Positions 15,490 through 35,786 of a DNA stretch of 64,000 bases are shown here, piece after piece. Every line of letters begins with the position of its first letter. Within the stretch, counting starts at the first letter, position 1. This DNA comes from an uncultured delta proteobacterium. GTDB lineage: Bacteria > Myxococcota > UBA727 > VGSZ01. The position numbers and the translations under genes were made by a program. The stretch spans positions 32,001 to 96,000 of the forward strand of contig CAVZJB010000016.1 in NCBI GenBank assembly GCA_963775425.1, read 5' to 3'. The notes under the pieces are model-generated. The model saw only the letters and a list, made by a program, of their open reading frames with translations, was not told the origin of the DNA and did not search any database.

Positions 15490-16062
15490 CTAGAAGAGGC
15501 CGCCCTTCTGCTTCTGCTCCGCGGCGAACTCGTCCTTGGTGAGCACCTCGGTGCGCAGCAGGTACTCGGCGGTGGCGTCGGAGCGGACCGCGATGAGGTG
15601 ATCGCCCGCGCGGAACACGCGCTGCTCCTTGACGAACACGCCCTGCTCGTTGGTGTCGCGGAAGATGTCGGCGCCCTGGCTGTCGAAGTCGAAGTCGTCG
15701 ACGCACGCTGGCTCGAACCAGGTGATCTCGGTGTCGGCGCCCGGGCCGAGCTGGGTGCGCCAGAAGAGCTTCACGCGGATGACGGCCTCGCCCTCCGTGG
15801 GAACGATGAAGAAGCGTTGCCCGGGGAAGTTGCCCTCCAGGTACGACTCCTCCTCGACCATCTTGCAGCCCGCGGTGGTGTTGCAGATGGGGATCTCGTC
15901 GAGGCAGTCCGACAGCGTGGCCTTGTCGATGAAGGCGGCCTCGCTCCCGAAATCACACCCGAGCGTGGCCGCGAGCGCGGCGGTGCCAAGGGCGCCGGTG
16001 AGCAGACGCATCAGCGACCGGAGGGAGCGGCCGCGCGTAATGAGGGTGCAGGTGGTGCGCAT
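15490..16062 (-). CDS. Cys-containing lipoprotein, co-transcribed with the VWA protein (alternative start 16011)
   Basis: Lipobox TLGC and cysteines in DCLDEIPICNTTAGC. Starts 5 nt after the VWA gene stop. Confidence 0.7.
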   Translation of the reverse strand: MRTTCTLITRGRSLRSLMRLLTGALGTAALAATLGCDFGSEAAFIDKATLSDCLDEIPICNTTAGCKMVEEESYLEGNFPGQRFFIVPTEGEAVIRVKLFWRTQLGPGADTEITWFEPACVDDFDFDSQGADIFRDTNEQGVFVKEQRVFRAGDHLIAVRSDATAEYLLRTEVLTKDEFAAEQKQKGGLF

Positions 16063-16067
16063 GGGGG

Positions 16068-18056: not shown

Positions 18057-18207
18057 CGCGCGAGCATAGCGCGCTCGTCGTGGCTGCCGCACGCCGGCGC
18101 CTGGGGGCGGCGGCCCCGCCCAGCACGGGGATGCATGCCCCGCGTGTGCCCGTGTGCGCCTCGCGGCCCGCGGGCGCGCGGCCCGCGGCTTCGGCTAGGA
18201 TGCGGGG

Positions 18208-19368
18208 ATGCGCAACGCCTGGCTCGCGTCGTCGTCCGCGTCGTTGTTGTTCCTCGCCTGCGGCTGCGAGGTGCTGCAGCCGGCGAAGCCGCCGCCCGAG
18301 CCCCAGCCCGGCACGTTCCTGTCGACGCCGTTTCCCGACGTGCGATCGCTCAACGACGTGATCGTGCTGAAGCCCGGCCTCGCCTACGCCGTCGGCACCG
18401 GCGGCACCATCCTCAAGCTCACGGGCACCACGTGGAGCAAGGAGGACAGCGGCGTCACCGACAATCTCGAGTCCATCTCGGGCTTCCTCAAGGACGCCGG
18501 CAGCGACACCGAGACCGAGGTGATGCTCGCGTGCGGCTTCAACGGCGTCGTCCTGCAGCGCACGGATCCGGGCGCCTGGGCGGTGGTCCCGTCGGGCACC
18601 ACCAACGTGCTGTTCTCCGTCGCCGTTCGCAGCGAGACCGACGGCTTCGTCGTCGGCGACGCCGGGACGGTGTTGCGCTGGGACGGAACGCAGCTCGTCG
18701 ATCAGACCACGCAGACGCTGCAGCTGGTCGTCGGCCTCACCTGCAGCGTCGACACGGACTGCGGCGGCGGCAGCGTCTGCAACGGCGGCACGTGCAACAG
18801 CTTCTTCCCCATCCCCGAGCCCTTGAAGGGCGTCGGCGGCGGCAGCACCATGCTCGCCGTCGGCGCGCGCGGCGCCGTCTACAGCTTCGACGCCGACGGC
18901 GATCCGGTGAGCGGCCGCTGGCAGCGCGAGGACTCCGGCACCACGCGTCCGCTCGCGGGGATCTTCACCGAGTCGGGCGTGTGGATGCCGGCCACCGACG
19001 GCGTGCTGCTGTTCAGGAACGGCGCCGACGACTACGACGACGAGAGCTTCCGCACGCCGGCGCCCGTGTTCCTCCAGGACGTGTGGGTCGACGGCGGCAA
19101 CATCTTCGCGGTCGGCCTCGGCCAGGACATTTTCCATCGCGACGGCAGCGGGGCCTGGAGCCTCACCACGGTGGCGGAGGACGCCGAGATGCGCGGGATC
19201 GACGGCTTCGAGGCGCCGCCGGACGACGATCCCAAGGGCGATCCCATCGCCACCTTCATCGCCGTCGGCGGCGGCGGCCGCATCGTGCGCGGACCGTTCG
19301 TCCTTCCCGTCGACGGCGAATCGGTGCTCAGCACCCGCCTGAGCGACACGGACTTCGTATCGCCCTGA
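18208..19368 (+). CDS. beta-propeller-like (WD40/YVTN/BNR-type repeat) lipoprotein with inserted Cys-rich module
   Basis: Lipobox ACGC, repeated AVGxxGT/VVL...W blades, and inserted CSVDTDCGGGSVCNGGTC. Confidence 0.7.
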   Translation: MRNAWLASSSASLLFLACGCEVLQPAKPPPEPQPGTFLSTPFPDVRSLNDVIVLKPGLAYAVGTGGTILKLTGTTWSKEDSGVTDNLESISGFLKDAGSDTETEVMLACGFNGVVLQRTDPGAWAVVPSGTTNVLFSVAVRSETDGFVVGDAGTVLRWDGTQLVDQTTQTLQLVVGLTCSVDTDCGGGSVCNGGTCNSFFPIPEPLKGVGGGSTMLAVGARGAVYSFDADGDPVSGRWQREDSGTTRPLAGIFTESGVWMPATDGVLLFRNGADDYDDESFRTPAPVFLQDVWVDGGNIFAVGLGQDIFHRDGSGAWSLTTVAEDAEMRGIDGFEAPPDDDPKGDPIATFIAVGGGGRIVRGPFVLPVDGESVLSTRLSDTDFVSP

Positions 19369-19421
19369 CGCCTACAGCGGTGCCCTCGTCTTCGGCGGCC
19401 GGCCTCCGCTATGCTGCCGCC

Positions 19422-19820
19422 ATGCTGAAGGCGCTCCTCGTCGCTTCCCTGGTCTGTTTCTCCGGCTCGGCCCTCGCGGCCCACCATGCGCCGCACGCGA
19501 AGGCGTCGTCGTCGGTGAAGCTCGCCAAGAGGTCGCGCCACTCGAAGAAAGCCGACAAGGCCAAGGAGAAGGAGAAGGCGGAGCCGGCGGACCGGCCCGG
19601 GCCCCACTCCGATCCTCGCGCGGCGGCCCCCGCGGCGGTGACGCCGGCGGCGGAGGCGCGGCACGGGATGTCCCGCATCGAGTTCGATGATCGCCTCGTG
19701 CAGGGGCAGACCAACAAGGCCAACGCCATCTATCTCTTCGAGCGCCGCGCGAGCGCCCTGCGGTCACTGCTCAAGAAGCGCACGAACTTCCACGAAGAGA
19801 TCGACGAGACCCTCGAGTAG
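19422..19820 (+). CDS. GltF/CglF-like small exported protein
   Basis: Signal peptide, K/A/P-rich linker, and C-terminal IEFDDRLVQGQTNKANAIYLFERRASALRSLLKKRTNFHEEI resembling the GltF family. Lies directly before the GltG-like gene. Confidence 0.65.
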   Translation: MLKALLVASLVCFSGSALAAHHAPHAKASSSVKLAKRSRHSKKADKAKEKEKAEPADRPGPHSDPRAAAPAAVTPAAEARHGMSRIEFDDRLVQGQTNKANAIYLFERRASALRSLLKKRTNFHEEIDETLE

Positions 19821-19862
19821 CCGCCCGGTCCTCGCCGTTCGAACGTGAAAAAGGAGTAGGGC

Positions 19863-22076
19863 GTGCTCGTCCTCCAGGTCTTCATCATGAGAAACGGTGC
19901 CTTCGAGGGCACCGAGATGGTCACCGGCGATCGCATCGAGATCGGCCGCGACCCGCAAAACGCGCTCGTCCTCGACGACGAGTCTTGCTCGCGCCGCCAC
20001 GCGGCGATCTTCGAGCACGACGGCAAGCTCGCCATCCAGGACCTCGGCAGCGCCAACGGCACGCGGATCAACGGCGAGCCGGTGGGCAACGGGCGTTTCA
20101 TCGGACCGCGCGACGACATCGCCGTCGGCGTCTTCATGCTCAAGGTGAAGCTGATGTCGGGCGCCGCGCGCGCGGCGGCGCCGGCGCCCATGGCGCCTGA
20201 TCCCACGCGCATCGTGCAGGTGCCGCAGCCGGTGCTGCCGCAGCCGTCGCGCGCCCCGGTGCCGAGCGCGGGCTCGCTCGCCATCGGCAGCGCCGACAAC
20301 GAGCGCACCGCCGTGGGCCTCGAGATGGCGATGACCGAGGCGTCGACGCCCGGCGCCATCTCGGGCAGCTCGAGCGAGGCCACGTTGACGGTGCCCGGCC
20401 CGCCGCCGGTGCCGATGTCGATGTCGGAGCCGTCGTCGCCGAGCCTGCGGCCCGAGCTCGAGTCGCACCCCGACGTCACCGCGCCCGAGGCGTCGCTGCC
20501 GGCGCTCGCGGAGGCGCCCACCGTGCCGAGGGGCACGCAGCGGCCGCAGCTCACCAGCCCGACGCCGCAGGCGGCGCCGGGCCGGCACCTCCCGCGCCCG
20601 GCGGCGCCCGACGTGCCGATGCCGATGGCGATGGACGACTTCCCCATCCCCGCGGCGCCCGTCAACACCGACGGTGAGCCGCTGCCGGCGCTGCGCTTCG
20701 CCCCGCGCTTCCTCGAGGAGGAGCTCGTCGAGGAGGAGACCGAGCCCGTGTGGTCGCTGGTGCAGCGGCTGGTGAAGCCGAGCGGCCCGGAGAAGAGCAA
20801 GGAGCCGCTGCTCGAGGTGCTGCACTACCGCGGCGAGCACGTCGTCGACCACAGCGTCTTGCGTCCCGGTGACACCTTCCGCCTCGGCGCGGGCATGAGC
20901 CGCGCCGAGCGACGGGAGGCGGGCATCGACAAGGTGGTGCCCATCGCGCGCCTGAAGAAGGGTGGCGTCGCGGAGGTGTTTCAGCGTGAAGAGGTGTCGG
21001 GGCGCTTGCTGCGCGGCAACCAGCAGACCGAGGTGAAGCCCGGCGGCGGCCCGGTGCCCATCACCGAGGGCGAGCTCGCGAGCCTGCGCGTGGGCAACGA
21101 GCGGGTGTTCCTGCGCTTCGCCGGCGCGCCTCAGCTCGTGTGGACGCGCGACGACGCCGCCGAGGATCGCTTCAACCGCCGCTTGAACGGCATCGCCGCC
21201 GGAGCGTCGGTGGGGTTGTTCCTCATCTTCGCGCTCATCTCGTGGATCCTGCAGTACCGAAACGCCGATCAGGAGATCATCGCGCTCGAGGACGACAGCT
21301 TCGCCGAGGTGGAGATGAAGCCCCTCGAGATGGAGAAGCCGCCGGAGCCGGAGAAGCCGCCGGAGCCCGTGGAGACCAAGGAGCCCGAGGCCGTCCCCGA
21401 CAAGAACCCCACGCCCGTCACCAAGGCGGACAACAAGCCCGCGCCCAAGGAGCAGGCGGCGAAGAAGCCCGGCGTGATGGACATCCTCAACAACATCCCG
21501 AAGGTGAATTCGTCGGCGTCGAACCAGAACCTCACGGCGGCGCTCTCGAACATCAAGGGCGTGCGCGTGCCCGGCGGCGCCGCCGGCGTGAAGGTGAGCG
21601 CGCTGATCGGCAAGGCGCCGACGTCGGGCGTGCAGATCGGCGGCGCGGCGGGCGGCTTGTCGACGAGCGGCATCAACTCGCTGTTCCGCAAGGACGGGCA
21701 GGCGGGCGCGCTCGGGGGCAAGGGGGACAGGAAGGTCGCCGGACGCGTCACCACGCTGCCCCGTCAGATCGTGCGCAAGGGCGAGGGCTCGCTGTCGAAG
21801 GAGGAGATCCAGAAGGTCATCCAGCGGCACATCGGCGAGATTCAGTACTGCTACGAGAAGCAGTTGCGGACGCAGCCGGGCCTCGCGGGTCGCGTGCAGC
21901 TCGAGTGGGTGGTGGCGCCCGGAGGTCGCGTCACCGTCGTCAAGGTGGCGAACTCGTCGCTGCCGAGCGCCGCCGCCACGGGCTGCATGGTGTCCAAGGT
22001 GAAGCGGTGGAAGTTCCCGTCGCCGAAGGGCGGGTCCGTCACCGTGGTGTTCCCCTTCGTGTTCAACACCGTCTAA
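19863..22076 (+). CDS. GltG/PglI-like protein: FHA domain, Pro-rich linker, TM helix, TonB-C/AgmX-PglI C-terminal domain
   Basis: FHA motifs IGRDP..SRRHA..DLGSANGT, one TM helix, and C-terminal IQYCYEKQL...GRVQLEW...GCMVSKVKRWKFPSPKGGSVTVVFPFVF. AAGGAG SD. Confidence 0.85.
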   Translation: MLVLQVFIMRNGAFEGTEMVTGDRIEIGRDPQNALVLDDESCSRRHAAIFEHDGKLAIQDLGSANGTRINGEPVGNGRFIGPRDDIAVGVFMLKVKLMSGAARAAAPAPMAPDPTRIVQVPQPVLPQPSRAPVPSAGSLAIGSADNERTAVGLEMAMTEASTPGAISGSSSEATLTVPGPPPVPMSMSEPSSPSLRPELESHPDVTAPEASLPALAEAPTVPRGTQRPQLTSPTPQAAPGRHLPRPAAPDVPMPMAMDDFPIPAAPVNTDGEPLPALRFAPRFLEEELVEEETEPVWSLVQRLVKPSGPEKSKEPLLEVLHYRGEHVVDHSVLRPGDTFRLGAGMSRAERREAGIDKVVPIARLKKGGVAEVFQREEVSGRLLRGNQQTEVKPGGGPVPITEGELASLRVGNERVFLRFAGAPQLVWTRDDAAEDRFNRRLNGIAAGASVGLFLIFALISWILQYRNADQEIIALEDDSFAEVEMKPLEMEKPPEPEKPPEPVETKEPEAVPDKNPTPVTKADNKPAPKEQAAKKPGVMDILNNIPKVNSSASNQNLTAALSNIKGVRVPGGAAGVKVSALIGKAPTSGVQIGGAAGGLSTSGINSLFRKDGQAGALGGKGDRKVAGRVTTLPRQIVRKGEGSLSKEEIQKVIQRHIGEIQYCYEKQLRTQPGLAGRVQLEWVVAPGGRVTVVKVANSSLPSAAATGCMVSKVKRWKFPSPKGGSVTVVFPFVFNTV

Positions 22077-22079
22077 GCC

Positions 22080-22589
22080 GTGCTGTCACTCGCCCTCCTC
22101 GTCGCGCTGCAGGCGCCGCTTGCACCCACGCCCATCGGCGCGCCGCCGCCGGCGCCGGCGGCGGCGGCGCGTGCCGAGGACGCCGTCGTCATCGCCCTCG
22201 ACAATCGGATCGTGAAGGACCAGGCGCCGGGGGCGTTTTTGACGCGCACCGTCGCCGCGCTCGAGAAGCTCCGCGGCGTGCGCGTGCTGCGCATCTCCGA
22301 CGGCAGGAAGCGCCTCGACGCGCGCGGTGACAAGGAGCTGTCGCGCTGCGCCGACGACGCGGGCTGCCTCGCCACCGCGGCGCGGGAGATCGGCGCGGAC
22401 ATCGTCGTCACCGTGCGCCTCACGCGCCGAACCGGGGCCTACTTCCTCGCGCTCACGCGCATCAGCGCCCTGCGCCCGCAGATGAGCGATGACGCCGCGA
22501 CGCTCGCGGGCAGCGAGCAGGACGCGTTGAAATTCGTCGCCGACGCCGTCGCGGAGCTTTTCCCCGACACGGAGGAAAAGGCCCCGTAG
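22080..22589 (+). CDS. exported hypothetical protein within the Glt-like cluster
   Basis: Signal peptide and a CADDAGC pair resembling periplasmic domains of myxobacterial PEGA proteins. Starts 3 nt after the GltG-like stop. Confidence 0.6.
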   Translation: MLSLALLVALQAPLAPTPIGAPPPAPAAAARAEDAVVIALDNRIVKDQAPGAFLTRTVAALEKLRGVRVLRISDGRKRLDARGDKELSRCADDAGCLATAAREIGADIVVTVRLTRRTGAYFLALTRISALRPQMSDDAATLAGSEQDALKFVADAVAELFPDTEEKAP

Positions 22590-22795
22590 CGCAGCCCCCG
22601 CGCCCCGAGGACTCCGTGCGACGGCGTGCGCGCGACCCGCGCTGCGCGCAGGTGCGGCCGGGCAGGCGCGATGTCGGCGCCGGGTGTGCGCCTCCGCGCG
22701 AACGCCGTGCGTACGTCGCCCGCCGCGGACGGCGTGGCGCCGCAAAGAACGTCCCACGCTCGCGCCGAGGCGCCGAACGGATGTAGAACCACGAC

Positions 22796-23485
22796 GTGCA
22801 TTCCATCGCGAACCCCACCGCACCACGCGGTCGTGCCTGCACCGCAGCCGCCGTCCTCGCCGCGTTGACGCCTCTTTTGGCCTCAACGCATGCGCGCGCC
22901 GACTACGACGATGAGGACAGCGGCGGCAACGCCGTCGTCATCCAGGAGCGCGAGTTCAAGATGGCGAACGAGTTCACGCTGTCGACGGGCATCCTGCCGC
23001 TCGATGCGTTCCAGAAGGGCATCCCGCTCACGGCCCGCTACACGCTGCACTTCGACGACTTCAACGCCTGGGAGATCATCGGCGGCACCTACAGCCTCAA
23101 CCTCGACAGCGGGCTGTCGGGCATCCTCGCCGACAAGTTTGCGGTGCAGGCCGAGATCCTGCCCAAGCTCCTCGTCGTCGCCGACACCAACTACGTCGCC
23201 AAACCGTTCTACGGAAAGTTCGCGCTCTTCAACAAGATGATCATCTACGAGGAGCTCTTCCTGAACGCGGGCTTGACCGTCAGCTACTGGTCCGACGGCT
23301 CCTTCCGGCCGGGACCCGACTTCGGCGCCGCCATCCGCTTCTTCGTCTGGGACTTCCTGTCCTTGCGCTTCGATATCCGGCACGCGCTCGTCATGAACGG
23401 CATCCCCTACTTCGACCCGAACGCGCAGGTCGACGGCGTCCTGCAGTTGCTCGCCGGCGTCTCGTTCAACGTGGGAGGCGGCTGA
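22796..23485 (+). CDS. outer-membrane beta-barrel protein (GltA/GltB/NfsA/NfsB-like)
   Basis: Signal peptide, VIQERE.K, PLDAFQKG, KPFYGKFA, alternating beta-strands and C-terminal GVSFN. Confidence 0.8.
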   Translation: MHSIANPTAPRGRACTAAAVLAALTPLLASTHARADYDDEDSGGNAVVIQEREFKMANEFTLSTGILPLDAFQKGIPLTARYTLHFDDFNAWEIIGGTYSLNLDSGLSGILADKFAVQAEILPKLLVVADTNYVAKPFYGKFALFNKMIIYEELFLNAGLTVSYWSDGSFRPGPDFGAAIRFFVWDFLSLRFDIRHALVMNGIPYFDPNAQVDGVLQLLAGVSFNVGGG

Positions 23486-24138
23486 TGCCCGCCGTCCTTC
23501 GCACCGTCCTTTGCACCGTCCTCGCGCTCGCGGCGGCGGCGCCCGCGCTCGCCGACAACGATGACACGGACATCAAAGAGCCCACGCGCGTGGTGATCCA
23601 AAACCGCAAGTACAAGCTCGGCACGGAGCTGACGTTCGAGGCGGCCACCCTCCCGCTCGATCCCTTCTACAAGGGCATCGCGGGCACCGCGCGGCTCACG
23701 TTCCACTTCAACGACTTCAACGCCTGGGAGGTCGCCGGCGGCACCTACAGCTTCAACCTCAACTCGAGCCTCACCGATCAGCTCGAGAAGAACTTCGGCG
23801 TGCAGGCTGCGCAGCTCCCGGGGCTGCAGTTCATGGTCGAGAGCGACTACATCATGAAGCCGTTCTACGGAAAGTTCGCCCTCGCCAACCGCACGCTGCT
23901 GTACCAGGAGGTCTACCTGGCCGTCGGCGGCACCGCGTCGTTCTGGACGGACAACTCGCTGCGCTACGGACCCAACTACGGCGGCGGCATCCGCTTCTTC
24001 CTCGCGGAGTGGTTCAGCTTGCGCTTCGACATCCGCCACGCGGTCGTGTTCTCCAAGATCCCGTTCGTCGACAAGGACGCCACCCTCGACGGCGTCCTCT
24101 ATCTGGGCGTGGGCGCGTCCTTCAACCTCGGAGGCTGA
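23485..24138 (+). CDS. outer-membrane beta-barrel protein (second GltA/GltB-like paralogue)
   Basis: VIQNRKY, PLDPFYKG, KPFYGKFA and C-terminal GASFNLGG. Clearly paralogous to 22796..23485. Confidence 0.8.
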   Translation: MPAVLRTVLCTVLALAAAAPALADNDDTDIKEPTRVVIQNRKYKLGTELTFEAATLPLDPFYKGIAGTARLTFHFNDFNAWEVAGGTYSFNLNSSLTDQLEKNFGVQAAQLPGLQFMVESDYIMKPFYGKFALANRTLLYQEVYLAVGGTASFWTDNSLRYGPNYGGGIRFFLAEWFSLRFDIRHAVVFSKIPFVDKDATLDGVLYLGVGASFNLGG

Positions 24139-24140
24139 CG

Positions 24141-25745
24141 ATGATCCTCGCGCTCACCGTCGCCCTCTCCTTCGGGCTGGCCGGCGCCGACGCCAAGGCG
24201 TCGCCCGCCCCCGCGGCCGCGCCGGCCGCCGGGGCGCAGCCCGCCCCAGGTGACAAGCCCGCCGACGCCGACAAGCCCGCCGAGGGCGAAGGCGAAGGCG
24301 ACGACAACGAGACCGTCGTCTCCACCGTGCCCGACAGCGTCTTCGACGAGGCCGTGCAGGACTTCGACCAGGGCAAATACAAGAGCGCCGCCGAGAAGTT
24401 CTGGCACTACCTGAGCGGCAACGAGCAGACCGCCGACCACTACGAGTGGGCCGAGTTCTACATCGCGCGCTCGTTCCTGCGGATGGGCCTGAACCACGCC
24501 GGCGTCGAGTACCTGTACAACGTCGCCAAGGAGCGCAAGCGCCCGGAGCTGCTGCCGGAGGCGCTGCGCGAGATCGAGCACATCCGCGACACCGTGCCTT
24601 TCGATTCGGAGCTGCTCGACACGGACCTCCTGCGCGGCGGCGACTTCGGCGCCCTCCCGCCCGACGTGAAGAGCTTCGTCGAATACCAGCAGGGCCGGCT
24701 CGACCTGCTCGACGGCCGGCGCGAATGGGCCCAGCGCCACTTTGATCGCCTCGCCCACACGAGTGACGACGAGCAACGCGTGCAGCGCTACGCCCTGCGG
24801 GCGCGTCTGGCGGAGGCCATCGCCGACCTCAAGGCCACGCACGCGCAGGACACCAAGGCCAAGCGCGACAAGCGCATGCACGCGCAGGAGATGCTCGTCG
24901 ACGTCGCCAAGTCCAAGATCGACGACTTCAAGGTGAAGAACGACGCCAAGCGCGTGGTGGCGGAGCTGCTGTTCGAGGAGAAGGACTTCGACGGCGCCCT
25001 CAAGATGTACAACTCCATCGAGGTGCCGTTCCTGTCCGAGGAGGAGGCCAACCTCTTCCTGGAGAAGGCGTGGACCCGCTACTACAAGGGAGACGCGCGC
25101 GGCACGCTCGGCATCCTCCTGACGCTCGACGCGCCGTCGTACCGCAAGTTCTTCAAGCCGGAGCGCTTCGTGCTGAAGGCGCTCGCGTACAAGTCGCTGT
25201 GCCACTACGCGGCGGCCAAGGCGGCGGCGCGGGAGTTCCTGCGGCGCTACGGGTCGTCGCTCGAGGAGATCCGGCGCTCACGCGACCCGCTCACCGATCC
25301 CGTCGTGCGCACCGCCGCGGTGCAGAGGAAGAAGCCCAAGCGCATGTACGCGTTCCTCGATTCGCTCCAGCACGAGCGCGACAACGTCGACCGCTTCTCC
25401 GACGAGTTCGGGCTCGCCACCCACCTGGCCCGGATCTACGACCTCAAGATCGCCGAGGTGAATCGCTCCCTCAATCGCGTGGTCAAGGACGAGGCCGTCA
25501 AGGTGGCCACGGAGCTGCTCGACTACGAGGAGCAGGCCCGCCTCGTCGACTACGAGGTGAGCCTCGAGGTGTTCAAGCGCCTCAAGAAGGGCAATGGCAA
25601 GAAGGTGGTGGACCAGGAGCCACCCATCCCGCTCGGCTCGCGGCAGGTCTACTACCGCTTCGACGGTGAATATTGGAACGACGAGCTGCACGACTACCGC
25701 TTCCGCATCGACAACCGCTGCTTCGGCGAGGAGCTGTTCGAATGA
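24141..25745 (+). CDS. GltC/NfsC-like periplasmic TPR protein
   Basis: Signal peptide, TPR-like helices (LFLEKAWTRY, PERFVLKALAYKSLC), and C-terminal FDGEYWNDELHDYRFRIDNRC similar to the GltC tail. Follows the beta-barrel pair. Confidence 0.75.
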   Translation: MILALTVALSFGLAGADAKASPAPAAAPAAGAQPAPGDKPADADKPAEGEGEGDDNETVVSTVPDSVFDEAVQDFDQGKYKSAAEKFWHYLSGNEQTADHYEWAEFYIARSFLRMGLNHAGVEYLYNVAKERKRPELLPEALREIEHIRDTVPFDSELLDTDLLRGGDFGALPPDVKSFVEYQQGRLDLLDGRREWAQRHFDRLAHTSDDEQRVQRYALRARLAEAIADLKATHAQDTKAKRDKRMHAQEMLVDVAKSKIDDFKVKNDAKRVVAELLFEEKDFDGALKMYNSIEVPFLSEEEANLFLEKAWTRYYKGDARGTLGILLTLDAPSYRKFFKPERFVLKALAYKSLCHYAAAKAAAREFLRRYGSSLEEIRRSRDPLTDPVVRTAAVQRKKPKRMYAFLDSLQHERDNVDRFSDEFGLATHLARIYDLKIAEVNRSLNRVVKDEAVKVATELLDYEEQARLVDYEVSLEVFKRLKKGNGKKVVDQEPPIPLGSRQVYYRFDGEYWNDELHDYRFRIDNRCFGEELFE

Positions 25746-28700
25746 GGCCCCGCGCTCCTTCCCGTGTCGCGCGCCCGACGGTCGCGCTCGCCGGCGCCCT
25801 CCTGTGCGGCACCGTCGTGTGCACGTTTGCGACGTCTTGCGGCACCACCACCGCCGCCAGCGGCGCCATGGGCAAGCTCGAGAGCGAGAAGCAGGAGCTG
25901 ATGCGCCTCAAGCGCGACATCGTCAAGGTCGACAAGTCCGTCGAGGTCACCAAGCAGCTCATCCAGCGCAGCAAGGGCGAGCGCTATCTCCCCGACCTCT
26001 ACTTCCGCCTGGCCGAGCTCTACATTGAGAAGTCGCGCCTGGTGTACTTCCGCATCCTCGAGGAGGCAGGCGCCGACGACAAGGCCGCGGTGGTCGCGCC
26101 CGAGGCCCGCCTGTTGAAGGACCAGGCCATCGCCGTGTACCGGCGCATCCTGTCGGAGTTCCCGGACTACCCGGACAACGACAAGATCACGTTCTTCATC
26201 GCGCACGAGTACCGCGAGCTCGGCAACTTCCAGGAGATGATCAAGACGTACGAGGAGCTCATCTCCAAGTACCCCAAGAGCAACTTCCGCTTCGAGGCGT
26301 GGCTCATCCTCGGCGACTACCACTTCGACAAGGGCGACATCGACGAGGCCATCGCCAACTATCGCTCCATCCTGAAGGGGCCGGAGACGTACGCGCACAA
26401 CATGGCGCGCTACAAGCTCGCCTGGTGCTACATCAACAAGGACAAGACCAACCTCGCCGTCGACCTGTGGGAACAGGCGGTCAAGACGCCGACCCCGCCG
26501 GAGCCGGGGGCGGAGCAGACGGGGTCGTCGCTCATCGAGAAGCCCGCGCGCCTCGACGTGCGCCAGGACGCGCTGCGCGACCTCGCCTACTACTACGCCG
26601 AGGCCCGTGACCCGCGCACCGCGCTGCCGTTCTTCCAGAACCTCACGGTGTCGAGGTCCGAGTACAAGATGGCGCTCGAGAAGCTCGCCAAGCGCTTCCA
26701 GATCAAGACCATGTACGAGGAGTCGGCCAAGGTGTACCGCGAGCTCATCCGCGTGTCCGCCGACGTCGACCGCGACCTCGAGTGGGCGGAGGCGGTCTAC
26801 GAGGCGGCGGTGGCGGCCAAGGATCTCGCGCACGCCGACGACGACGTCGTCATGCTCTCGGAGGTGTCCGCCCGCTACAAGTACTGGTGGCGTGCGAACG
26901 AGGAGGACAAGAAGGTCCTCAAGGACTTCGAGCTCCTCACGCGCAATCTCTCCACCCGCCTGCACGCGCTGGCCAAGGAGAAGAAGGATCCCGACCTCTA
27001 CGCGCGCGCCGCCACGGCGTACAAGAGCTACCTCTCGGTGTTCGAGGACAGCCCCGAGCGCTTGGCGATGGAGTGGAACTACGCGGAGACGCTGTTCTCC
27101 GCCAAGCAGTTCGTGAAGGCGGGCCGCCAGTACGAGCAGGTGCTCAAGGACCTCTCGCCCGCCGGCAAGCCGTCCGCGGCCGGCAAGAAGCCCGCGGACG
27201 CCAAGGGCAAGCCGGACGCCAAGGCCGGCAAGCCGGACGCCAAGGCCGGCAAGCCGGACGCCAAGAAGGGTGACGTGAAGGTCGCCAAGGCGGACGACAA
27301 GAAGGCCAAGCCGACGGCGCCGGCGCCGTCGGACCTCGCCAACACCTCGGGCTCCCTCGAGGGCGACCGCAAGCAGGCGATGTACTCGGCCATCCTCAGC
27401 TACTTCGAGGCGTTGAAGAACGAGGAGAAGGGCACGCGCTTCGACTCCATGATGGCGCGCGAGGGCATCAAGGACCTCGGCGGAAAATTCGTCGCCAAGT
27501 ATCCCGACGATCCCAACACGCCCAACGTGAAGTTCAACGTCGCGCGCGCGTATTACGAGCAGGGCCTGTACGACAAGGCCATCGAGCTGTTCGTCGCGTT
27601 CGTCAAAGAGCACCCCACCAACAAGGACGCCAACACCGCCGCCGAGCTCACGCTCGACTCGTACTCCCAGAAGGAGGACTTCCTCGGCCTCGCCAAGCAG
27701 GCCAAGGAGTTCGCCACCATGCCGCTGCCCGACGCCGCCAAGTTCACCAAGATGGCGAGCGACGCCGAGCAGGAAGAGATCAACCGCAAGACCATCAACG
27801 CCGAGAGCGGCAAGGTGGCCGAGGCGCTGTCTTCCTTCGTCGGCGCGCACAAGGGTGACGCGGTCGCGGCCAAGGCGCTGTACCAGGCCTTCGTCATCGC
27901 CAAGGACCGCCGGAACATCTCCGACATGGAGAAGACCGGGCGCCAGCTCCTCGCCGACTACGGCAACACCAAGTACGCCAAGGAGGTGCTGCCCGGGCTC
28001 GCCGAGCAGGCCATCCGCGTCAGCCAGATCGAGCACGCCGCGCAGCTGTACGAGGAGTACGCGCGCCGCTATCCCGAGGGCCAGGCCTCCGACGACCTGC
28101 TCGAGGGCGCCGCCGGCATCCGCACCGGCCTCGGTCAGTTCCCTGAGGCCATGAGCGACTACGAGCGCCTCACCAAGCAGGGCGAAGAGGGCAGGCGGCC
28201 GGGGTGGTTCGCCAAGCTCGCCGAGATCGCGGCGCGCAGCGGCGACTGGCGTCGCGCCGAAGACGCCGCGCTCGCCATCGCCGACAACGGCGCCCACGCG
28301 GTGCTCGCCAACTGCATCGCGGGCGAGGCCGCGCTCCGCACCGCCAAGCCCGACGTCGCCAACGAGCGGCTCCAGGCCGCGGTCATGGCCGCGCAGAAGA
28401 ACCGCGGCAACGAGGACGGCCCCGAGTGGGTCGCGCGCGCGCTCTATCTGCTCGGCGAGATCGTGCGCACCGACTACGAGCGCGTGCAGTTCGGCGTCGG
28501 CGACGAGGGCGCCGCGCTCCAACAGAAGTTCCAGCTCCTCGACGAGCTGCAGGCCACGTACGTCGAAGCCATCAAGGTCGGCGATCCCGAGTGGGCCATG
28601 GGCGGCCTCTACCGCGTGGCCAACGCGTACAAGCAGGCCGCCGACTTCCTGGACAACGCGCCGTCGCCGCAGGGCGCGTCGCCGGAGGACGAAAAGCAGT

Positions 28701-29284
28701 ACCGCGCGGCCCTCGCCGAGCGCTCCGGCCCGCTGCGCAAGCAGGCGGCGGAGGCGCTGCAGGCGTGCAAGGACCAGGCGAAGAAGCTGGAGGCGTTCAA
28801 CCGCTTCACCAAGGCGTGCATGTCGGGCGCGCAGGTGCAGGACGACGGGGACAACCCCCGGCCGCGCCCGGCCGGCGTGGCCATCCCGAACCGCGACAAG
28901 CTCGAGGCCAAGCTCGTCGAGAGCCCCAAGGACGTGAACACCCTCACGCAGCTCATCCGGGCCGCCATCTCGGTGAAGGACTACCCGCTCGCGGGCGTCC
29001 TCGCCGAGCGCGCGCTCGAGATCGACGAGCGCAGCTCGGCGCTCAACAACCTCCGCGGCGTCGCCTTCGCCGGCTCCAACCAGATGCAGGCGGCGGCGGG
29101 CGCGTTCAAGAAGGCCACCAAGCTCGACAGCCACAACAGCGCGGCGTGGGCCAACCTGGGCACGCTCTACTCGCTGTACGGCAACGAGGACCGCGCGCGG
29201 GAGGCTTTCTTCCACGCGGGCAACTTCGACGCGTCGTCGCCCGACGTCATGACCGGCGCCGCAGCCGCGAAAGGAGGCCGCTGA
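25742..29284 (+). CDS. GltD/AgmU/NfsD-like large TPR protein (probable lipoprotein)
   Basis: Hydrophobic leader with ATSC, PDLYFRLAELYIEKSR, many TPRs, MARYKLAWCYIN, about 1180 aa. ATG overlaps the GltC-like stop. Confidence 0.78.
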   Translation: MRPRAPSRVARPTVALAGALLCGTVVCTFATSCGTTTAASGAMGKLESEKQELMRLKRDIVKVDKSVEVTKQLIQRSKGERYLPDLYFRLAELYIEKSRLVYFRILEEAGADDKAAVVAPEARLLKDQAIAVYRRILSEFPDYPDNDKITFFIAHEYRELGNFQEMIKTYEELISKYPKSNFRFEAWLILGDYHFDKGDIDEAIANYRSILKGPETYAHNMARYKLAWCYINKDKTNLAVDLWEQAVKTPTPPEPGAEQTGSSLIEKPARLDVRQDALRDLAYYYAEARDPRTALPFFQNLTVSRSEYKMALEKLAKRFQIKTMYEESAKVYRELIRVSADVDRDLEWAEAVYEAAVAAKDLAHADDDVVMLSEVSARYKYWWRANEEDKKVLKDFELLTRNLSTRLHALAKEKKDPDLYARAATAYKSYLSVFEDSPERLAMEWNYAETLFSAKQFVKAGRQYEQVLKDLSPAGKPSAAGKKPADAKGKPDAKAGKPDAKAGKPDAKKGDVKVAKADDKKAKPTAPAPSDLANTSGSLEGDRKQAMYSAILSYFEALKNEEKGTRFDSMMAREGIKDLGGKFVAKYPDDPNTPNVKFNVARAYYEQGLYDKAIELFVAFVKEHPTNKDANTAAELTLDSYSQKEDFLGLAKQAKEFATMPLPDAAKFTKMASDAEQEEINRKTINAESGKVAEALSSFVGAHKGDAVAAKALYQAFVIAKDRRNISDMEKTGRQLLADYGNTKYAKEVLPGLAEQAIRVSQIEHAAQLYEEYARRYPEGQASDDLLEGAAGIRTGLGQFPEAMSDYERLTKQGEEGRRPGWFAKLAEIAARSGDWRRAEDAALAIADNGAHAVLANCIAGEAALRTAKPDVANERLQAAVMAAQKNRGNEDGPEWVARALYLLGEIVRTDYERVQFGVGDEGAALQQKFQLLDELQATYVEAIKVGDPEWAMGGLYRVANAYKQAADFLDNAPSPQGASPEDEKQYRAALAERSGPLRKQAAEALQACKDQAKKLEAFNRFTKACMSGAQVQDDGDNPRPRPAGVAIPNRDKLEAKLVESPKDVNTLTQLIRAAISVKDYPLAGVLAERALEIDERSSALNNLRGVAFAGSNQMQAAAGAFKKATKLDSHNSAAWANLGTLYSLYGNEDRAREAFFHAGNFDASSPDVMTGAAAAKGGR
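27206..27265 (+). repeat. 21-bp tandem repeat (GKPDAKA x ~3) in the GltD-like linker
   Basis: ggcaagccggacgccaaggcc occurs twice perfectly plus an 18-bp partial copy. Confidence 0.85.
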
Positions 29285-29922
29285 TGCGTGCGTTCGTCGC
29301 CGTCCTCGCGCTCGGGCTCGCGAGCGGGTGCGCGGGCTTGTCCCACCGCGTGGATCGCTCGCTCCTCGACCAGGTCCCCAACGAAGAGCTGCTCTTGCTC
29401 TTCGACGCCGAAAACGCCGTGTTCATCGCGCGCGACGAGTCCGACCTCGCCACGCGCAACCTCGAGGACGCGCGCAAGGCGCTCAAGCGCGCAGACGCCT
29501 ACAAGAAGGTCATCGAGGAGCGCCGCACCTCGGGCGCCGCCATCGACAGCGCCGAGGTGCTCCAGCTCCTCGAGCAATGGAACGACGCGCGCATCGAGAT
29601 GCGCAAGAAGGAGGTCGCGCTGCGCGAAGAGGAGCTCAGCACCTCCGGCGTCCGGCTGTGGGCGGCGCGCGCGCGCTACGAGCGAGCCAAGGCCAAGCTG
29701 GTCAAGGACTTCAACCCCGCCGGCGGCGCCAACATCGACCTCGCGGACTTCGACGAGCAGGTGAAGGACTGGGAGGCGAAGGAGCAGGAGGTCCTCAAGG
29801 GCTTGAAGAAGCGCGAGGACGCCATGCTCGCCGCGCGCGAGGCCTACATCGCGCTCGCCGTCCAACTGCAAAAGGCCTCCAAGGGCGCCTACGGCGGCCC
29901 CTGGGCCAATCTCCTCGATTGA
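29284..29922 (+). CDS. coiled-coil lipoprotein of the Glt-like operon
   Basis: Lipobox ASGC and an alpha-helical charged body. ATG overlaps the upstream stop (TGATG). Confidence 0.75.
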   Translation: MRAFVAVLALGLASGCAGLSHRVDRSLLDQVPNEELLLLFDAENAVFIARDESDLATRNLEDARKALKRADAYKKVIEERRTSGAAIDSAEVLQLLEQWNDARIEMRKKEVALREEELSTSGVRLWAARARYERAKAKLVKDFNPAGGANIDLADFDEQVKDWEAKEQEVLKGLKKREDAMLAAREAYIALAVQLQKASKGAYGGPWANLLD

Positions 29923-29976
29923 GCTAGTTTCGCAAGCGGCCGCTCCCGCCGGTCGCAGTGACAGAGGCCCCTTGCC

Positions 29977-32040
29977 GTGATCTTCGCCTCCCTCGTGCTC
30001 GCCCTCGCCGCCGCTCCCGATGCGGGCGTCCCCGCGCCGCCGCCGGCTCCTGTCGAGGGGGGCTCGCGCGACGAGGTCCACCTCTCCGACGGCCCCGCCG
30101 AGGTGCCCCCCAAGAAGGCCGGCATCCCGTTTTACGAAGACCTGGTGAAGAAGACGCCGGGCAATCCCAACGCGCACCAGCAGCTCGCCGCCGCCTTCGC
30201 GCGCCAGGGCAAGACCGACGACGCCCGCCGGGAGGCGCGGCGGGCCATCGAGCTCGCTTCCGCGCTCAACCCGGGCGACGAGGGCGCCAGGGCCGCGGTG
30301 GCGGAGGCGCACCAGGCGCTGGCGCTCGTCGAGGAGGGCGCCGGCAACCTCGCCGCCGCCGAGAAGGAGCTGAACGAGGCCACGGCCGCCGACGGGAACG
30401 TCGAGTACAAGCTCGACCTCGCCCGCGTGCTCTTCCTCCAGTCCAAGATTGGCGGTGATCACGGGGCGGAGGCGGTGTGGAACGACATCGCGCAGAGCTT
30501 CGCCGCCGACGTCGACGTGCAGTTCGCGCTCGCCGACGCCTACAAGGACCTCGGCCGCTACGAGGACGCGTCCGCCGCCTACGAGCGGGCGCTCGCCCTG
30601 GCCACCGAGCCGGGCAGCGAGAAGCGCATCGATATCCTCCTCGAGGAGGGGCGCATGCTCGCAGACCGCGGCAACAACACGCAGGCGCTCGGGCTGTTCA
30701 CGCAGGCCCGCTCCGAGGCGCCCGGGTCCGCGGAGGTGCTCTACAACCTTGGCGTGCTCTACGTGCGGCTCGGCCAGAACGACGCCGCCGTGAACGCGTT
30801 CAAGGATGCGCTCAAGATCGACCCCGACCTCGTGAAGGGGCACAACAACCTCGGCGTCGCCCTCGACAAGGCCGGGCGCCACGACGAGGCCATGGCGGCC
30901 TTCCAGAAGGCCGTCGAGCTCGACGCGCGCTTCGCCGACGCCGCCTACAACCTCGGCCTCGTCAGCTTCAAGCTGCACAAGTTCAAGGAGGCGCGGGCCG
31001 CGTTCGAGAAGGCGCTCACCATCAATCCCGAGATGGCCGACGCCAAGTTCTACCTGGGCGAGGTCTACTACCAGCTCGGCGACCACAAAAAGGCGCTGCA
31101 GGTCTACAAGGAGGCGCTCCGCAGCAACCCCGAGGACGGCTCCTCGCACCGCCGGCTGGGCGACATCTACCTCGAGAAGGGCGACGTCAGCCTGGCCATC
31201 GGCGAGTACTGGGCCGCCGTCGACGCCGACGAGAAGGACACCTCCAACCGCGCGCAGTTGATGCGTGTGCTGCTGGTCCGCAACGACGAGGGAGACGTCC
31301 GGCGCGCCGTGAAGCTCGGCGACGACGGCCTCGACCTCGACCCTTCGGCGCTCGAGGTGCGCGAGGCGCTCTCCGAGGCCGAGGTGCAATACGGGCGCTC
31401 CAAGCGGGCGGAGCAGGTCCTCGAGGCCGGCACCAAGGTGATGCCGGCGGACCCGCGCACCCACGTGTTGCTCGGGCGCTTCCTCCTCGACCAGGGCAAC
31501 CTGCCGGGGGCCAAGCTGAGCATCGATCAGGCGCTCAAGCTCGATCCGAAGAACGCGCCGGCGTTGGCGGCGTCCGGCAAGCTCGCGGAGCTCGGCGGCG
31601 ACAGCAAGACGGCCATCAAGCTCTTCAAGCAGGCGCTCGCCCTCGACGCCACCCTCACCGACGCCCGCGCCGACCTCGGGCGCATCCTGTACGTCGAGGA
31701 CAAGAACACCGAGGCGCTCAAGGAGCTCAAGCGCGCCACCGAGGACGCACCCAAGCTCGGCAAGGCGTGGTTCTACCTCGCGTTCGCGCAAAACAAGGCA
31801 GGCCGAGGCGAAGCGGCCGTGGAGAAGTCGCTCAAAAAGGCGGTGGAAAACCAGCCGGACCTCGCCGAGGCGCACTTCCAGCTCGGCTGCATCGCCCTGC
31901 ACCAGCATCGCCTCAACGACGCCAAGAAGGCCTTCGAGGCCGCGGTGAAGGCGCGCGATTCGTACGAGGAGCCGCGCACCTATCTGGAGCTCATCGCCTC
32001 GGGCGCGGCTCCGTCACAGTGCACGAGCGAAAAGAAGTGA
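29977..32040 (+). CDS. exported multi-TPR protein (possible GltE-like component)
   Basis: Signal peptide and many canonical TPRs (YNLGVLY, HNNLGVAL, AYNLGLV, HFQLG). Confidence 0.8.
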   Translation: MIFASLVLALAAAPDAGVPAPPPAPVEGGSRDEVHLSDGPAEVPPKKAGIPFYEDLVKKTPGNPNAHQQLAAAFARQGKTDDARREARRAIELASALNPGDEGARAAVAEAHQALALVEEGAGNLAAAEKELNEATAADGNVEYKLDLARVLFLQSKIGGDHGAEAVWNDIAQSFAADVDVQFALADAYKDLGRYEDASAAYERALALATEPGSEKRIDILLEEGRMLADRGNNTQALGLFTQARSEAPGSAEVLYNLGVLYVRLGQNDAAVNAFKDALKIDPDLVKGHNNLGVALDKAGRHDEAMAAFQKAVELDARFADAAYNLGLVSFKLHKFKEARAAFEKALTINPEMADAKFYLGEVYYQLGDHKKALQVYKEALRSNPEDGSSHRRLGDIYLEKGDVSLAIGEYWAAVDADEKDTSNRAQLMRVLLVRNDEGDVRRAVKLGDDGLDLDPSALEVREALSEAEVQYGRSKRAEQVLEAGTKVMPADPRTHVLLGRFLLDQGNLPGAKLSIDQALKLDPKNAPALAASGKLAELGGDSKTAIKLFKQALALDATLTDARADLGRILYVEDKNTEALKELKRATEDAPKLGKAWFYLAFAQNKAGRGEAAVEKSLKKAVENQPDLAEAHFQLGCIALHQHRLNDAKKAFEAAVKARDSYEEPRTYLELIASGAAPSQCTSEKK

Positions 32041-32047
32041 CGCGCTC

Positions 32048-34883: not shown

Positions 34884-35786
34884 TCACGCGAGCTCGAGGG
34901 GACGGGCGAGGCGGTAGCCGAGCCCCTTTCTGGACTCGATGACGTCGAGAGACGGGTTCCCCGCGGCCAGCTTGCCGCGCACCTTGCGGACCAGGCCGCG
35001 CAGGTTGGCGTGCGTCGGCGCCTCCGACTTGAACGAGAGGGTCTCGAGGAGCAGCGCGGCAGGGACGAAGCCGCGCACCGCCGCGTCGAGCGCGCCCTCG
35101 TCGTCGAAGCGGCGGGCGAGCACGCACAGCAGCTCGTACTCGAGCTCAGAGAGTTGCACGCGCTCGTCGCCCCACAGCGCCATGGCGCCACCCTCCGTCA
35201 CCGCGCACACCTTCAGCGGCCGACCGTCGTCGAAGCGCATGTCGCGCCGCGTGTCCATCGGCGGCTCGCGGGCCTGCGCCCGCAGCGCCTCGGCCACGGC
35301 GTCGACGTCGTCGTCGTCGACGGGAACGAACAGGAACGACACGCGCCGGCCGAAGGAGATCCGGTCCAGGGGCTCCAGCGGAAAGCGCCGGCTGACGGGC
35401 TCCCCGTTCACGAATGTGCCGTTTTCGCTCTGCGCGTCCGCCACGAACCACGCGTTCGAGCGCGGACGGTGCTCGAATAGCGCGTGCGCCAACGACACCG
35501 TCCGCTCCGCGATGCACAGGTCCGACGCCCGCGACCTGCCGACGGTCGCCGACTCGTACCCCACGACGGCGACCGCGTGCCCGGCGCCGAAGGCGTCGAC
35601 GAGCACCGCGTTGCGCGCGCCCGCCACGGGCTCGGCCGCGCGCGCCGCGATCTGCTCGGGGCACAGCTCGACGTCTCCCGCGCCGTCGCCGCCCTCGGTG
35701 GTCACGCGGGCGTCGCGCGCGCACGTCGAGCAGAGCAGACCGCGCTCGCGAGGGTGCGTTCGACAGGCGAGACACAGCGCGTCCAT
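34884..35786 (-). CDS. Zn-finger-FHA-winged-helix transcription regulator
   Basis: N-terminal CLAC..CSTC, FHA (VGRS..VSLAHA..SENGTFVNG) and OmpR-like wHTH C-terminus (LSELEYELL..LVRKVRGKL..IESRKGLGYRL). Confidence 0.78.
   Translation of the reverse strand: MDALCLACRTHPRERGLLCSTCARDARVTTEGGDGAGDVELCPEQIAARAAEPVAGARNAVLVDAFGAGHAVAVVGYESATVGRSRASDLCIAERTVSLAHALFEHRPRSNAWFVADAQSENGTFVNGEPVSRRFPLEPLDRISFGRRVSFLFVPVDDDDVDAVAEALRAQAREPPMDTRRDMRFDDGRPLKVCAVTEGGAMALWGDERVQLSELEYELLCVLARRFDDEGALDAAVRGFVPAALLLETLSFKSEAPTHANLRGLVRKVRGKLAAGNPSLDVIESRKGLGYRLARPLELA

Follow-up and report, generated by a model that had tools for sequence, protein, structure and literature searches.

A probable G5-class Glt-paralogue cluster with two lineage-specific additions in an uncultured delta proteobacterium

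We analysed 64,000 nt of contig C16 (CAVZJB010000016.1) from the genome of an uncultured delta proteobacterium (8.26 Mb in 18 contigs); this whole stretch is called the window below. The window has a high G+C content (0.65-0.77). Positions 19422-32040 hold nine co-oriented open reading frames (ORFs) on the + strand with coding-type G+C at third codon positions (GC3, 0.80-0.96), which confirms the gene count of the original prediction made from this DNA. That prediction read the genes as a rearranged, motor-less machine of the Glt family, distinct from gliding Glt and from Nfs, with two non-canonical subunits. It is partly supported: it was right in kind and overstated the peculiarity of the cluster, as the G5 class of Glt paralogues has already been described. 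The cluster is very probably the genome's own copy of this class (MXAN_1327), a fourth lineage beside Glt, Nfs and G4. The nine genes are:

19422..19820, + strand: GltF-like exported protein, 132 aa (profile-profile comparison)
19863..22076, + strand: GltG-like bitopic inner-membrane protein (FHA domain, one transmembrane span, TonB_C domain)
22080..22589, + strand: exported TolB-N-like protein, 169 aa (predicted fold)
22796..23485, + strand: outer-membrane beta-barrel 1, GltA/GltB family (TIGR04565)
23485..24138, + strand: outer-membrane beta-barrel 2, GltA/GltB family, tandem paralogue (TIGR04565)
24141..25745, + strand: GltC-like exported protein, probable G5 class, 534 aa (GltC model)
25742..29284, + strand: GltD-like TPR protein, probable G5 class, 1180 aa (GltD tree)
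29284..29922, + strand: three-helix-bundle lipoprotein, 212 aa (lipobox, predicted structure)
29977..32040, + strand: exported TPR protein in the GltE position, 687 aa (position, TPR similarity)

The order is thus F-G-x-barrel-barrel-C-D-y-TPR, where x is the protein starting at 22080 and y the lipoprotein starting at 29284. The overlapping stop and start codons noted earlier were found at three junctions: 23485 (1 nt), 25742-25745 (ATGA, 4 nt) and 29284 (1 nt). Two other pairs of neighbours are 3 nt (22076/22080) and 2 nt (24138/24141) apart, and larger gaps precede the first barrel gene (206 nt) and the last gene (54 nt). The cluster junctions show translational coupling. The start of the GltG-like gene is ambiguous, either GTG at 19863 or ATG at 19887. 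Scans for promoters and terminators over 15000-34000 gave sites no more numerous than in shuffled sequence.

All NCBIfam Glt equivalog scores of the cluster proteins are far under cut-off. In brief, the GltF-like protein has a signal peptide, a basic, proline-rich linker and a conserved C-terminal motif. It scores 22.7 bits (E 7.5e-5; cut-off 90) with the NCBIfam CglF model, which in practice is a GltF model because the gene it picks out is the small one between gltE and gltG. Profile-profile comparison with GltF/NfsF gave a probability of 97.3% (E 2.4e-11), and in its own genome the GltF-like profile finds only this gene and the GltF genes of the gliding and Nfs-like clusters described below. 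The GltG-like protein matches NF033760 (157.1 bits, cut-off 650) and the AgmX-PglI family NF033768 (112.1 bits, cut-off 40). It carries an FHA domain (58 bits), one transmembrane span near residues 436-455 and a TonB_C domain (23.3 bits), in a layout that puts FHA in the cytoplasm and the TonB_C/AgmX-PglI domain in the periplasm.

The two barrels are 52% identical to each other and match TIGR04565 with 51.8 and 70.2 bits, respectively (cut-off 60). The GltC-like protein matches NF033756 (69.7 bits, E 2.1e-19; cut-off 450) and ends in a C-terminal region with an invariant E-W-N-D-E-L motif. Compared by tblastn with the Nfs-like GltD of its own genome, the GltD-like protein shows 24.5% identity over 1065 aa; it also has matches to YbgF/CpoB-type TPR families, the best being TIGR02795 with 74.3 bits; all YbgF matches are under cut-off. 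It was originally called a GltD-like lipoprotein. Its GltD relationship stands, but its lipoprotein status is uncertain, because homologues such as the Myxococcus one are without the lipobox-like FATSC found here. The domain calls for the GltG-like protein, the paralogous barrels, the GltC-like protein and the lipoprotein at 29284 hold. The best Glt-specific match of the 687-aa TPR protein is the GltE model NF033758 (122 bits, cut-off 225); generic TPR families outscore it and no lipobox is present.

These scores bear on the reading that the genes are simply the organism's canonical gliding Glt or Nfs machine in shuffled order. The same protein families are indeed present, but the matches to the GltG, GltC, GltE and CglF models reach only 157/650, 69.7/450, 122/225 and 22.7/90 of their cut-offs. 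None of the nine proteins matches CglE (GltH), and no GltH, GltI, GltJ or GltK match was found in the cluster with models that excluded GltI and GltK; the only match to the GltJ model is the C-terminal tail that it shares with the GltG-like protein. The genome also holds three further Glt-like clusters. The one at C4:414.9-428.4 kb is the true gliding cluster, with the order barrel-barrel-C-D-E-F-G-(GltG/J-like)-H and scores, over cut-off, of 503.8/450 for GltC, 238/225 for GltE, 106.1/90 for CglF and 142.8/70 for CglE; its GltG model score is 531.2 bits (cut-off 650). The cluster at C16:578-592 kb is Nfs-like, with the gliding-cluster order and intermediate scores (GltC 247, GltG 290, CglF 74, CglE 112). 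The third, at C4:248-260 kb, is G4-like, adjoins mglA/mglB and has its own TolQ-like gene. The search for a separate canonical glt locus thus succeeded.

A GltD tree of 16 rows, none omitted, was made with a quick IQ-TREE search and Glt, Nfs and G4 references from two genomes only; it separates Glt (SH-aLRT 100), Nfs (99), G4 (100) and G5-type (100) clades, with a G5-type stem of 1.66. The window protein falls inside the G5-type clade together with proteins of Myxococcus sp. Y35, Archangium, metagenome-assembled-genome (MAG), Thermodesulfobacteriota and Bacteriovoracaceae origin. The claim of a further Glt-family machine is therefore borne out. The shuffled canonical machine is refuted by the separate gliding and Nfs-like clusters and by the place of the window GltD outside both clades, and we give it next to no probability.

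The link to G5 runs through Myxococcus sp. Y35, where four GltD homologues were found and the GltC model matches in four places. One set (GltC 1078.5 bits) is split in the manner of glt, a second has the Nfs order, a third adjoins mglBA, as G4 (MXAN_1922) does, and the fourth, locus L070, is syntenic with the window and carries its cluster genes at 6105-17929. This fourth cluster holds the best Y35 match of the window GltD-like protein (306 + 240 bits, against at most 108 for the others). Luciano 2011 (PMC3169522), in the part considered here, names four gltD homologues in M. xanthus: gltD, nfsD, MXAN_1922 (G4) and MXAN_1327 (G5). The same text states that the function of G4 and G5 is unknown and that both mutants move normally. 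The edge gene of L070 is MtsC by NCBIfam equivalog (594.6 bits, cut-off 350), and a 2025 paper, as far as it is used here, equates MtsC with MXAN_1334. Counting genes from there (vWA/TSP3, propeller, F, G, barrel, C, D) makes the L070 GltD MXAN_1327, and elimination against G4, Nfs and Glt gives the same result. It should be noted that the comparison with G5 was drawn through the Y35 cluster. A transcriptome paper lists MXAN_1327 under 'Tad-like pilus' among genes upregulated with prey; we set this label aside as an annotation slip, and the expression hint is weak.

The window and Y35 clusters share membership of the GltD clade that contains M. xanthus G5 and the order F-G-barrel-C-D-(lipoprotein)-three-helix lipoprotein-TPR. 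Neither has a motor in cis, and both have a vWA/TSP3 gene divergently upstream. They differ in that the TolB-N-like gene after G and the second barrel are found only in the window, Y35 having one barrel; in that a short, unrelated propeller-like lipoprotein stands in the window where Y35 has a 768-aa propeller; and in that the genes of MtsC/MtsD type lie on contig C3 rather than adjacent. Protein identity is about 30-42%.

A search with the GltC-like protein gave 78 proteins including the query; the others are nameless or carry generic names (hypothetical, TPR-repeat, TolA-binding) and come mostly from MAGs. Orthologues 36-41% identical occur in Myxococcus and Archangium, among them those of Myxococcus sp. 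CA023 and Y35, M. vastator and Archangium gephyra at 36-39%, and orthologues 26-31% identical in MAGs labelled Desulfobacteraceae, Desulfomonilia, Desulfobulbia and Bacteriovoracaceae. A pattern scan with one genome per species gave 356 stretches and 301 confirmed relatives, and 79 loci were kept; 38 of these, called full-flank loci, extend at least 9 kb to either side and are the basis of all counts out of 38 or of its parts by label. Phyla are given as labelled in the records, which for some MAGs is clearly imprecise. Among 401 Myxococcota genomes sampled, 224 have a GltC-like match (E <= 1e-30), nearly always one per genome (223 of 400 without the unpublished genome G196; 189 of the 316 that are at least 90% complete). 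The match is frequent in some families (144/172; 18/18) and was not found in others (0/67; 0/21).

The order F-G-barrel(s)-C-D runs throughout the 79 loci (tblastn with the window proteins), and in Myxococcota loci it is followed by the three-helix lipoprotein and the TPR gene. The GltF-like profile matches in all 38 full-flank loci (31/38 by tblastn), the GltD-like protein in 38/38, the GltG-like protein in 36/38 and a syntenic TPR gene in 23/38; two barrels are found in 11 of them and one barrel in 27. The order was originally regarded as rearranged and permuted. With F and G first it is indeed a rotation relative to Glt and Nfs, but it is no local rearrangement: it is the conserved state of the class in Myxococcota, Thermodesulfobacteriota and Bdellovibrionota. 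New here are the breadth and the fixed architecture of the G5 class, together with a cis motor in other lineages (below).

The two subunits first held to be non-canonical turned out differently from one another. The lipoprotein at 29284 is a standard component, found in 19 of the 22 Myxococcota-labelled loci. Its profile matches in 23/38 full-flank loci, with 0/7 of Thermodesulfobacteriota and 0/3 of Bdellovibrionota; in Myxococcota, G5-type clusters regularly include its gene, placed after D and before the TPR gene. Its AlphaFold2 (AF2) model (pLDDT 90.1) has three long antiparallel helices (33-82, 90-143 and 153-198). No Pfam family was found, a PDB sequence search gave weak coiled-coil matches (E 0.11-0.89), and Foldseek gave nothing at E <= 0.001, its BAR-like helical matches being non-significant. 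In a 50%-clustered library the family numbers 619 representatives at E <= 1e-3, 211 at 1e-10 and 48 at 1e-30, and the gene is single-copy in its own genome.

The protein at 22080 is lineage-specific: its profile is present in only 2/38 full-flank loci. It has 31 homologues of 50-71% identity, all unnamed or hypothetical MAG proteins of the window's lineage. Pfam gave nothing specific and a PDB sequence search no match. Its AF2 model (pLDDT 87.2) was most similar to TolB in VIA (7mx5_B, Z 11.1, rmsd 2.5 Å over 110 aligned residues), followed by a second TolB chain (Z 9.7) and by LpoB, PelC and CsgG-type chains (Z 8-9); TolB also came top in Foldseek, with a borderline E of 1.0e-3. We regard the protein as a lineage-specific addition with a predicted fold like the N-terminal domain of TolB. 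In the Tol-Pal system, the N-terminal part of TolB contacts the TonB-like domain III of TolA. An analogous contact between the 22080 protein, whose gene starts 3 nt after the GltG-like gene, and the C-terminal domain of the GltG-like protein is thus worth testing. Weak matches to this TolB-N-like domain, which has a conserved Cys pair, occur in 16 more ORFs of the genome, including one close to the G4-like cluster (C4:242.1-243.1 kb). The TolB-N-like gene and the barrel duplication are the two lineage-specific additions that are new here; for the window alone this makes a modest result, a well-preserved member of the G5 class with two additions of its own lineage.

The TolB-like fold raises the question whether the cluster serves a cargo-free, Tol-Pal-like maintenance of the envelope, such as outer-membrane tethering or cell division, energised by a TolQR-type motor. 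Besides this fold, a TonB/TolA-like anchor, the YbgF/CpoB-type TPR matches and an AglRQS-like motor set that adjoins secDF speak for it. All YbgF matches are under cut-off, however, the genome has further MotA/ExbB sets for Tol and Exb (seven matches, three of them AglR-like), and a gene confined to the window's lineage cannot define the function of the class. The likeness to Tol-Pal (TolQR-type motor, TolA/TonB-like anchor, YbgF-like TPR modules, TolB-N-like fold) is one of parts and principle: the window cluster has no Pal, no TolB propeller and no equivalog-level match. We consider such a role quite unlikely.

No motor genes had been seen in the window, and a motor borrowed in trans had been proposed. 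Both points are confirmed. Pfam searches of 22 further window ORFs found no MotA/ExbB-family gene, and of the seven such genes in the genome none lies on the 1.33-Mb contig C16, so that a motor of the cluster must act in trans. Three of the seven are AglR-like and stand in R-Q-S sets of Agl type:

C4:249.7-251.6 kb: set inside the G4-like cluster; pairs with one Y35 set (SH-aLRT 91-94)
C5:656.3-658.2 kb: pairs with the other Y35 set (SH-aLRT 98-100)
C4:466.7-468.5 kb: set after secD/secF, also in relatives; no Y35 counterpart

The three sets are candidate motors for the cluster, and we name no winner. The secDF-linked set groups on the side of cluster-linked motors in the AglR tree and in a concatenated R-Q-S tree; as the cognate motor it was dropped, given p values of 0.58 and 0.62 for the alternative in the approximately unbiased (AU) test. 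At C4:464-471 kb (L106) this set lies directly 3' of secF (secD being first) and 5' of a gene for an MMPL-like 745-aa protein; secD and secF also accompany the set in L109, from a relative in the same order, and in L107, from a relative in the same family, the set is followed by the MMPL-like gene. In the G4-like cluster (L104), the AglR/Q/S-like genes lie between the GltE-like and GltG-like genes. The Y35 G4 locus has no MotA/ExbB gene nearby, and the pairing of the G4-linked motor with one of the two Agl-type sets of Y35 suggests an assignment of the orphan second Myxococcus motor to G4. In Wartel 2013, according to the sections used, AglR binds GltG and NfsG in two-hybrid assays, and MXAN_3003, the second AglR homologue of M. 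xanthus, binds neither; MXAN_3003 may thus have a different partner.

The original prediction named the lack of an adjacent motor among the marks of the machine, and as put this is not supported. None of the nine MotA/ExbB genes of Myxococcus sp. Y35 is adjacent to its glt, nfs, G4 or G5-type locus, and the motor-less form of the class also occurs in Archangium. Elsewhere the motor is in cis. An AglR-like gene lies directly upstream in 18/38 full-flank loci (Thermodesulfobacteriota 7/7, Bdellovibrionota 3/3, Myxococcota 5/22, Pseudomonadota 3/4), and in all seven loci with such a gene whose ORFs were listed (L026, L031, L035, L041, L042, L064 and L072) an AglR-like gene and two ExbD-like genes directly precede the GltF-like gene. 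Such loci, from Thermodesulfobacteriota, Bacteriovoracaceae and some Myxococcota MAG relatives, with R-Q-S directly before F-G-barrel-C-D, resemble the ancestral 'core complex' that the relevant parts of Luciano 2011 (PMC3169522) and Wartel 2013 describe, in which aglRQS and gltC, D, E and G share one locus in non-myxobacterial taxa. That complex was published for Gamma- and Betaproteobacteria, Geobacter and Fibrobacter. We liken the two by description and do not equate them.

The relative L026 (49% GltC identity) carries R-Q-S in front of the cluster, whereas in the window and its closer relatives L009, L010, L013 and L016 a propeller-like lipoprotein gene replaces it. This might be taken to mean that the cluster is a decaying, non-functional paralogue that lost its cis motor. 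Nine open frames with GC3 of 0.80-0.96 and coupled junctions have been kept, though, related MAGs have orthologues of 72-88% identity in the same order, and the motor-less state is common to Myxococcus and Archangium. Decay is therefore very unlikely.

To the left of the cluster lie three genes for lipoproteins, and the functional unit probably extends as far as 15490:

15490..16062, - strand: small Cys-rich lipoprotein, 173-190 aa (lipobox ATLGC)
16068..18092, - strand: vWA lipoprotein with bacterial TSP3 repeats, 674 aa, CglD/MtsD-like (Pfam, NCBIfam)
18208..19368, + strand: beta-propeller-like lipoprotein, 386 aa (weak BNR/Ycf48-type match)

The vWA/TSP3 lipoprotein matches Pfam TSP3_bac (37.4 bits), VWA weakly, and the NCBIfam models MtsD (109.8 bits, cut-off 800) and CglD (36.7 bits). 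It is 31% identical over 458 aa (E 2e-43), a stretch that spans lipobox, vWA domain and repeats, to the product of L070:1835-3508 in Y35. That gene lies between mtsC and the propeller gene and is, by our count, MXAN_1333; the window protein is in turn the best match of this mtsC-adjacent protein in its own genome. The mts locus of Myxococcus reportedly serves social motility and cohesion, as reflected in the NCBIfam names and in one citing paper. The window thus shares with the mts locus a homologue of the gene between mtsC and the G5-type cluster, but has no MtsC or MtsD equivalog. At C3:443-449 kb and C3:651-653 kb the genome has homologues of MtsC (44%), of a second vWA/TSP3 protein and of the 768-aa propeller (48%), which indicates that its mts-like genes are dispersed.

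We counted a vWA/TSP3 homologue as linked if it scored at least 100 bits over at least 300 residues and lay at most 10 kb from the GltC-like gene. This holds for 27/38 full-flank loci: 7/7 of Thermodesulfobacteriota, 3/3 of Bdellovibrionota, 12/22 of Myxococcota, 4/4 of Pseudomonadota and 1/2 without label. The gene lies downstream of D in loci of the Thermodesulfobacteriota type, together with genes for a TSP_3-repeat protein and a lipoprotein of about 755 aa, and upstream in Myxococcus. No vWA homologue was found beside the gliding, Nfs-like or G4-like clusters of the window's genome. The steady vWA/TSP3 neighbour and, in Myxococcus, the adjacency to mts are new here; in the open literature, searched by the locus tags MXAN_1324-1336 with subscription journals outside the scope, no paper links the neighbouring genes to Glt.

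The other two lipoproteins are less constant. The small Cys-rich lipoprotein, encoded directly downstream of the vWA gene, gave no Pfam family; its homologues are found within or next to G5-type clusters in other Myxococcota (19/79 loci; 11/38 full-flank). The propeller-like lipoprotein has weak PSII_BNR/Ycf48 matches under cut-off and is syntenic only in close relatives (6/79 loci). By BLASTP it is not similar to the 768-aa propeller of Myxococcus, nor is that propeller similar to the 755-aa lipoprotein of the Desulfobacterota-type loci.

The cargo of the machine had been left entirely open. A conserved vWA/TSP3 neighbour in 27/38 loci means that it is not wholly so. In gliding, according to the published work as far as it is drawn on here, the vWA lipoprotein CglB is recruited, and its exposure regulated, by the GltA/B/H/C/K platform of the outer membrane, and CglD, a lipoprotein of vWA/TSP type, provides calcium-dependent anchorage of the apparatus. 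From the conserved neighbourhood and this analogy we suggest the vWA/TSP3 lipoprotein as a putative cargo. Our best reading, which we hold to be fairly probable, is that the cluster would encode a motor-driven envelope complex of the G5 class that handles vWA/TSP3 adhesins.

Another possibility is that G5-type machines move a polymer (polysaccharide or matrix), as Nfs does with spore-coat glycan, and that vWA/TSP3 genes are merely frequent neighbours. Wartel 2013, in the passages cited, proposes Agl-Glt/Nfs as versatile surface transporters of sugar polymers, perhaps also of proteins or lipids, and the vWA gene is missing within 10 kb in 11/38 full-flank loci. Against this, neither the scanned window ORFs beside the cluster nor the accessory ORFs of four loci include polysaccharide synthesis or export genes, and the vWA/TSP3 linkage persists across three phyla with differing gene arrangements. 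We judge polymer transport to be improbable, though less so than a Tol-Pal-like role.

The adhesin-handling reading can be spelled out as a mechanism, with contacts, motor and cargo that we propose on the strength of gene content, family membership, clade and conserved synteny. A proton-driven motor of the TolQR/AglRQS type, encoded elsewhere, would engage the GltG-like protein. Force or a conformational change would pass via the GltF-like protein and the TPR scaffolds (the GltC-like, GltD-like and GltE-position proteins) and reach an outer-membrane platform presumably made of the two GltA/B-type barrels and the three-helix lipoprotein. At the cell surface, this platform might hold, expose or move the calcium-binding vWA/TSP3 lipoprotein together with the small lipoprotein as its partner. 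The outcome would be adhesion or cell-cell cohesion and not gliding or spore-coat assembly. The TolB-N-like protein may be an adaptor, peculiar to this lineage, that acts in the periplasm on the TonB-like domain of the GltG-like protein. For this chain as a whole, from motor through GltG, scaffold and platform to the vWA lipoprotein, we would claim somewhat less than an even chance.

Such a complex would share with the Agl-Glt gliding machine (GltA-K, AglRQS, CglB/CglD) homologues of GltA/B, GltC, GltD, GltF and GltG, a TPR protein at the place of GltE, dependence on a trans-acting TolQR-type motor and an association with a vWA lipoprotein. It differs from it in its separate clade, its scores under the equivalog cut-offs, the lack of GltH/I/J/K matches, the rotated order and the extra three-helix lipoprotein. 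As with Nfs (NfsA-H), this Glt paralogue is encoded at one locus and has no motor in cis; unlike Nfs, which has the order A-B-C-D-E-F-G-H and a GltH homologue, it falls outside the Nfs clade.

Several observations weigh against the adhesin-handling reading. According to the text of Luciano 2011 (PMC3169522) considered here, a polar MXAN_1327 mutant moved normally on hard agar, and the legend of Figure S5 of that paper has the same mutant twitching on soft agar. With the motility of the mutant normal and mts reportedly needed for social motility and cohesion, a need of G5 for Mts function is not obvious, although the MXAN_1327 insertion leaves F, G, barrel and C intact. A vWA homologue within 10 kb is missing in 10 of the 22 Myxococcota-labelled full-flank loci, and the MtsC-like and propeller homologues of the genome lie on another contig, C3, with no MtsC or MtsD equivalog in the window. 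The GltE assignment is based on position and generic TPR similarity, and the AU test does not reject the opposite placement of the secDF-linked motor set (p 0.58, 0.62).

More broadly, we speculate that G5-type machines are old, motor-coupled 'adhesin engines' spread over three phyla, which Myxococcus would use in its Mts cohesion machinery; the use of CglB/CglD in gliding would have come later, and the TolB-N-like adaptor would have been recruited in the window's lineage. We hold this to be rather unlikely as a whole. If it is true, a TolQR-like motor acting via a conduit of GltG, GltF, TPR and barrel proteins controls the display or movement of integrin-like, calcium-binding vWA/TSP3 lipoproteins; in Myxococcus, Mts-dependent cell-cell cohesion would thereby gain its missing machinery, and CglB/CglD use in gliding would be a later specialisation of the same principle. 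The hypothesis that the G5 class energises or organises cohesion adhesins is testable in the tractable Myxococcus, and it would bear on the origin of the coupling of the gliding machine to its adhesins.

Genes for Ser/Thr phosphorylation flank the locus. Just left of the pair formed by the small and the vWA/TSP3 lipoprotein genes is a Ser/Thr kinase with a PEGA domain (13780-15444, + strand), syntenic in the close relatives L009, L010, L013 and L049. To the right are an FHA protein (34884-35825, - strand), a PP2C phosphatase (35933-36685, + strand) and a second kinase with TPRs (44479-46263, + strand). Matches similar to these genes lie near the cluster in three Myxococcaceae MAGs. Their products could regulate the FHA domain of the GltG-like protein.

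Other window genes lie further away. At 55018-60222 (+ strand) a 1734-aa protein consisting nearly entirely of TPR repeats is encoded; giant TPR proteins (GltI/AgmK) belong to the gliding machine. The region 2-2960 (+ strand) holds two DUF2330 genes in tandem, the first of which has a short RnfD/NqrB-like match at its start and may be a mis-joined frame at the window edge. At 52731-53456 (- strand) lies a gene for an AbiEii-type nucleotidyltransferase toxin of a type IV toxin-antitoxin system.

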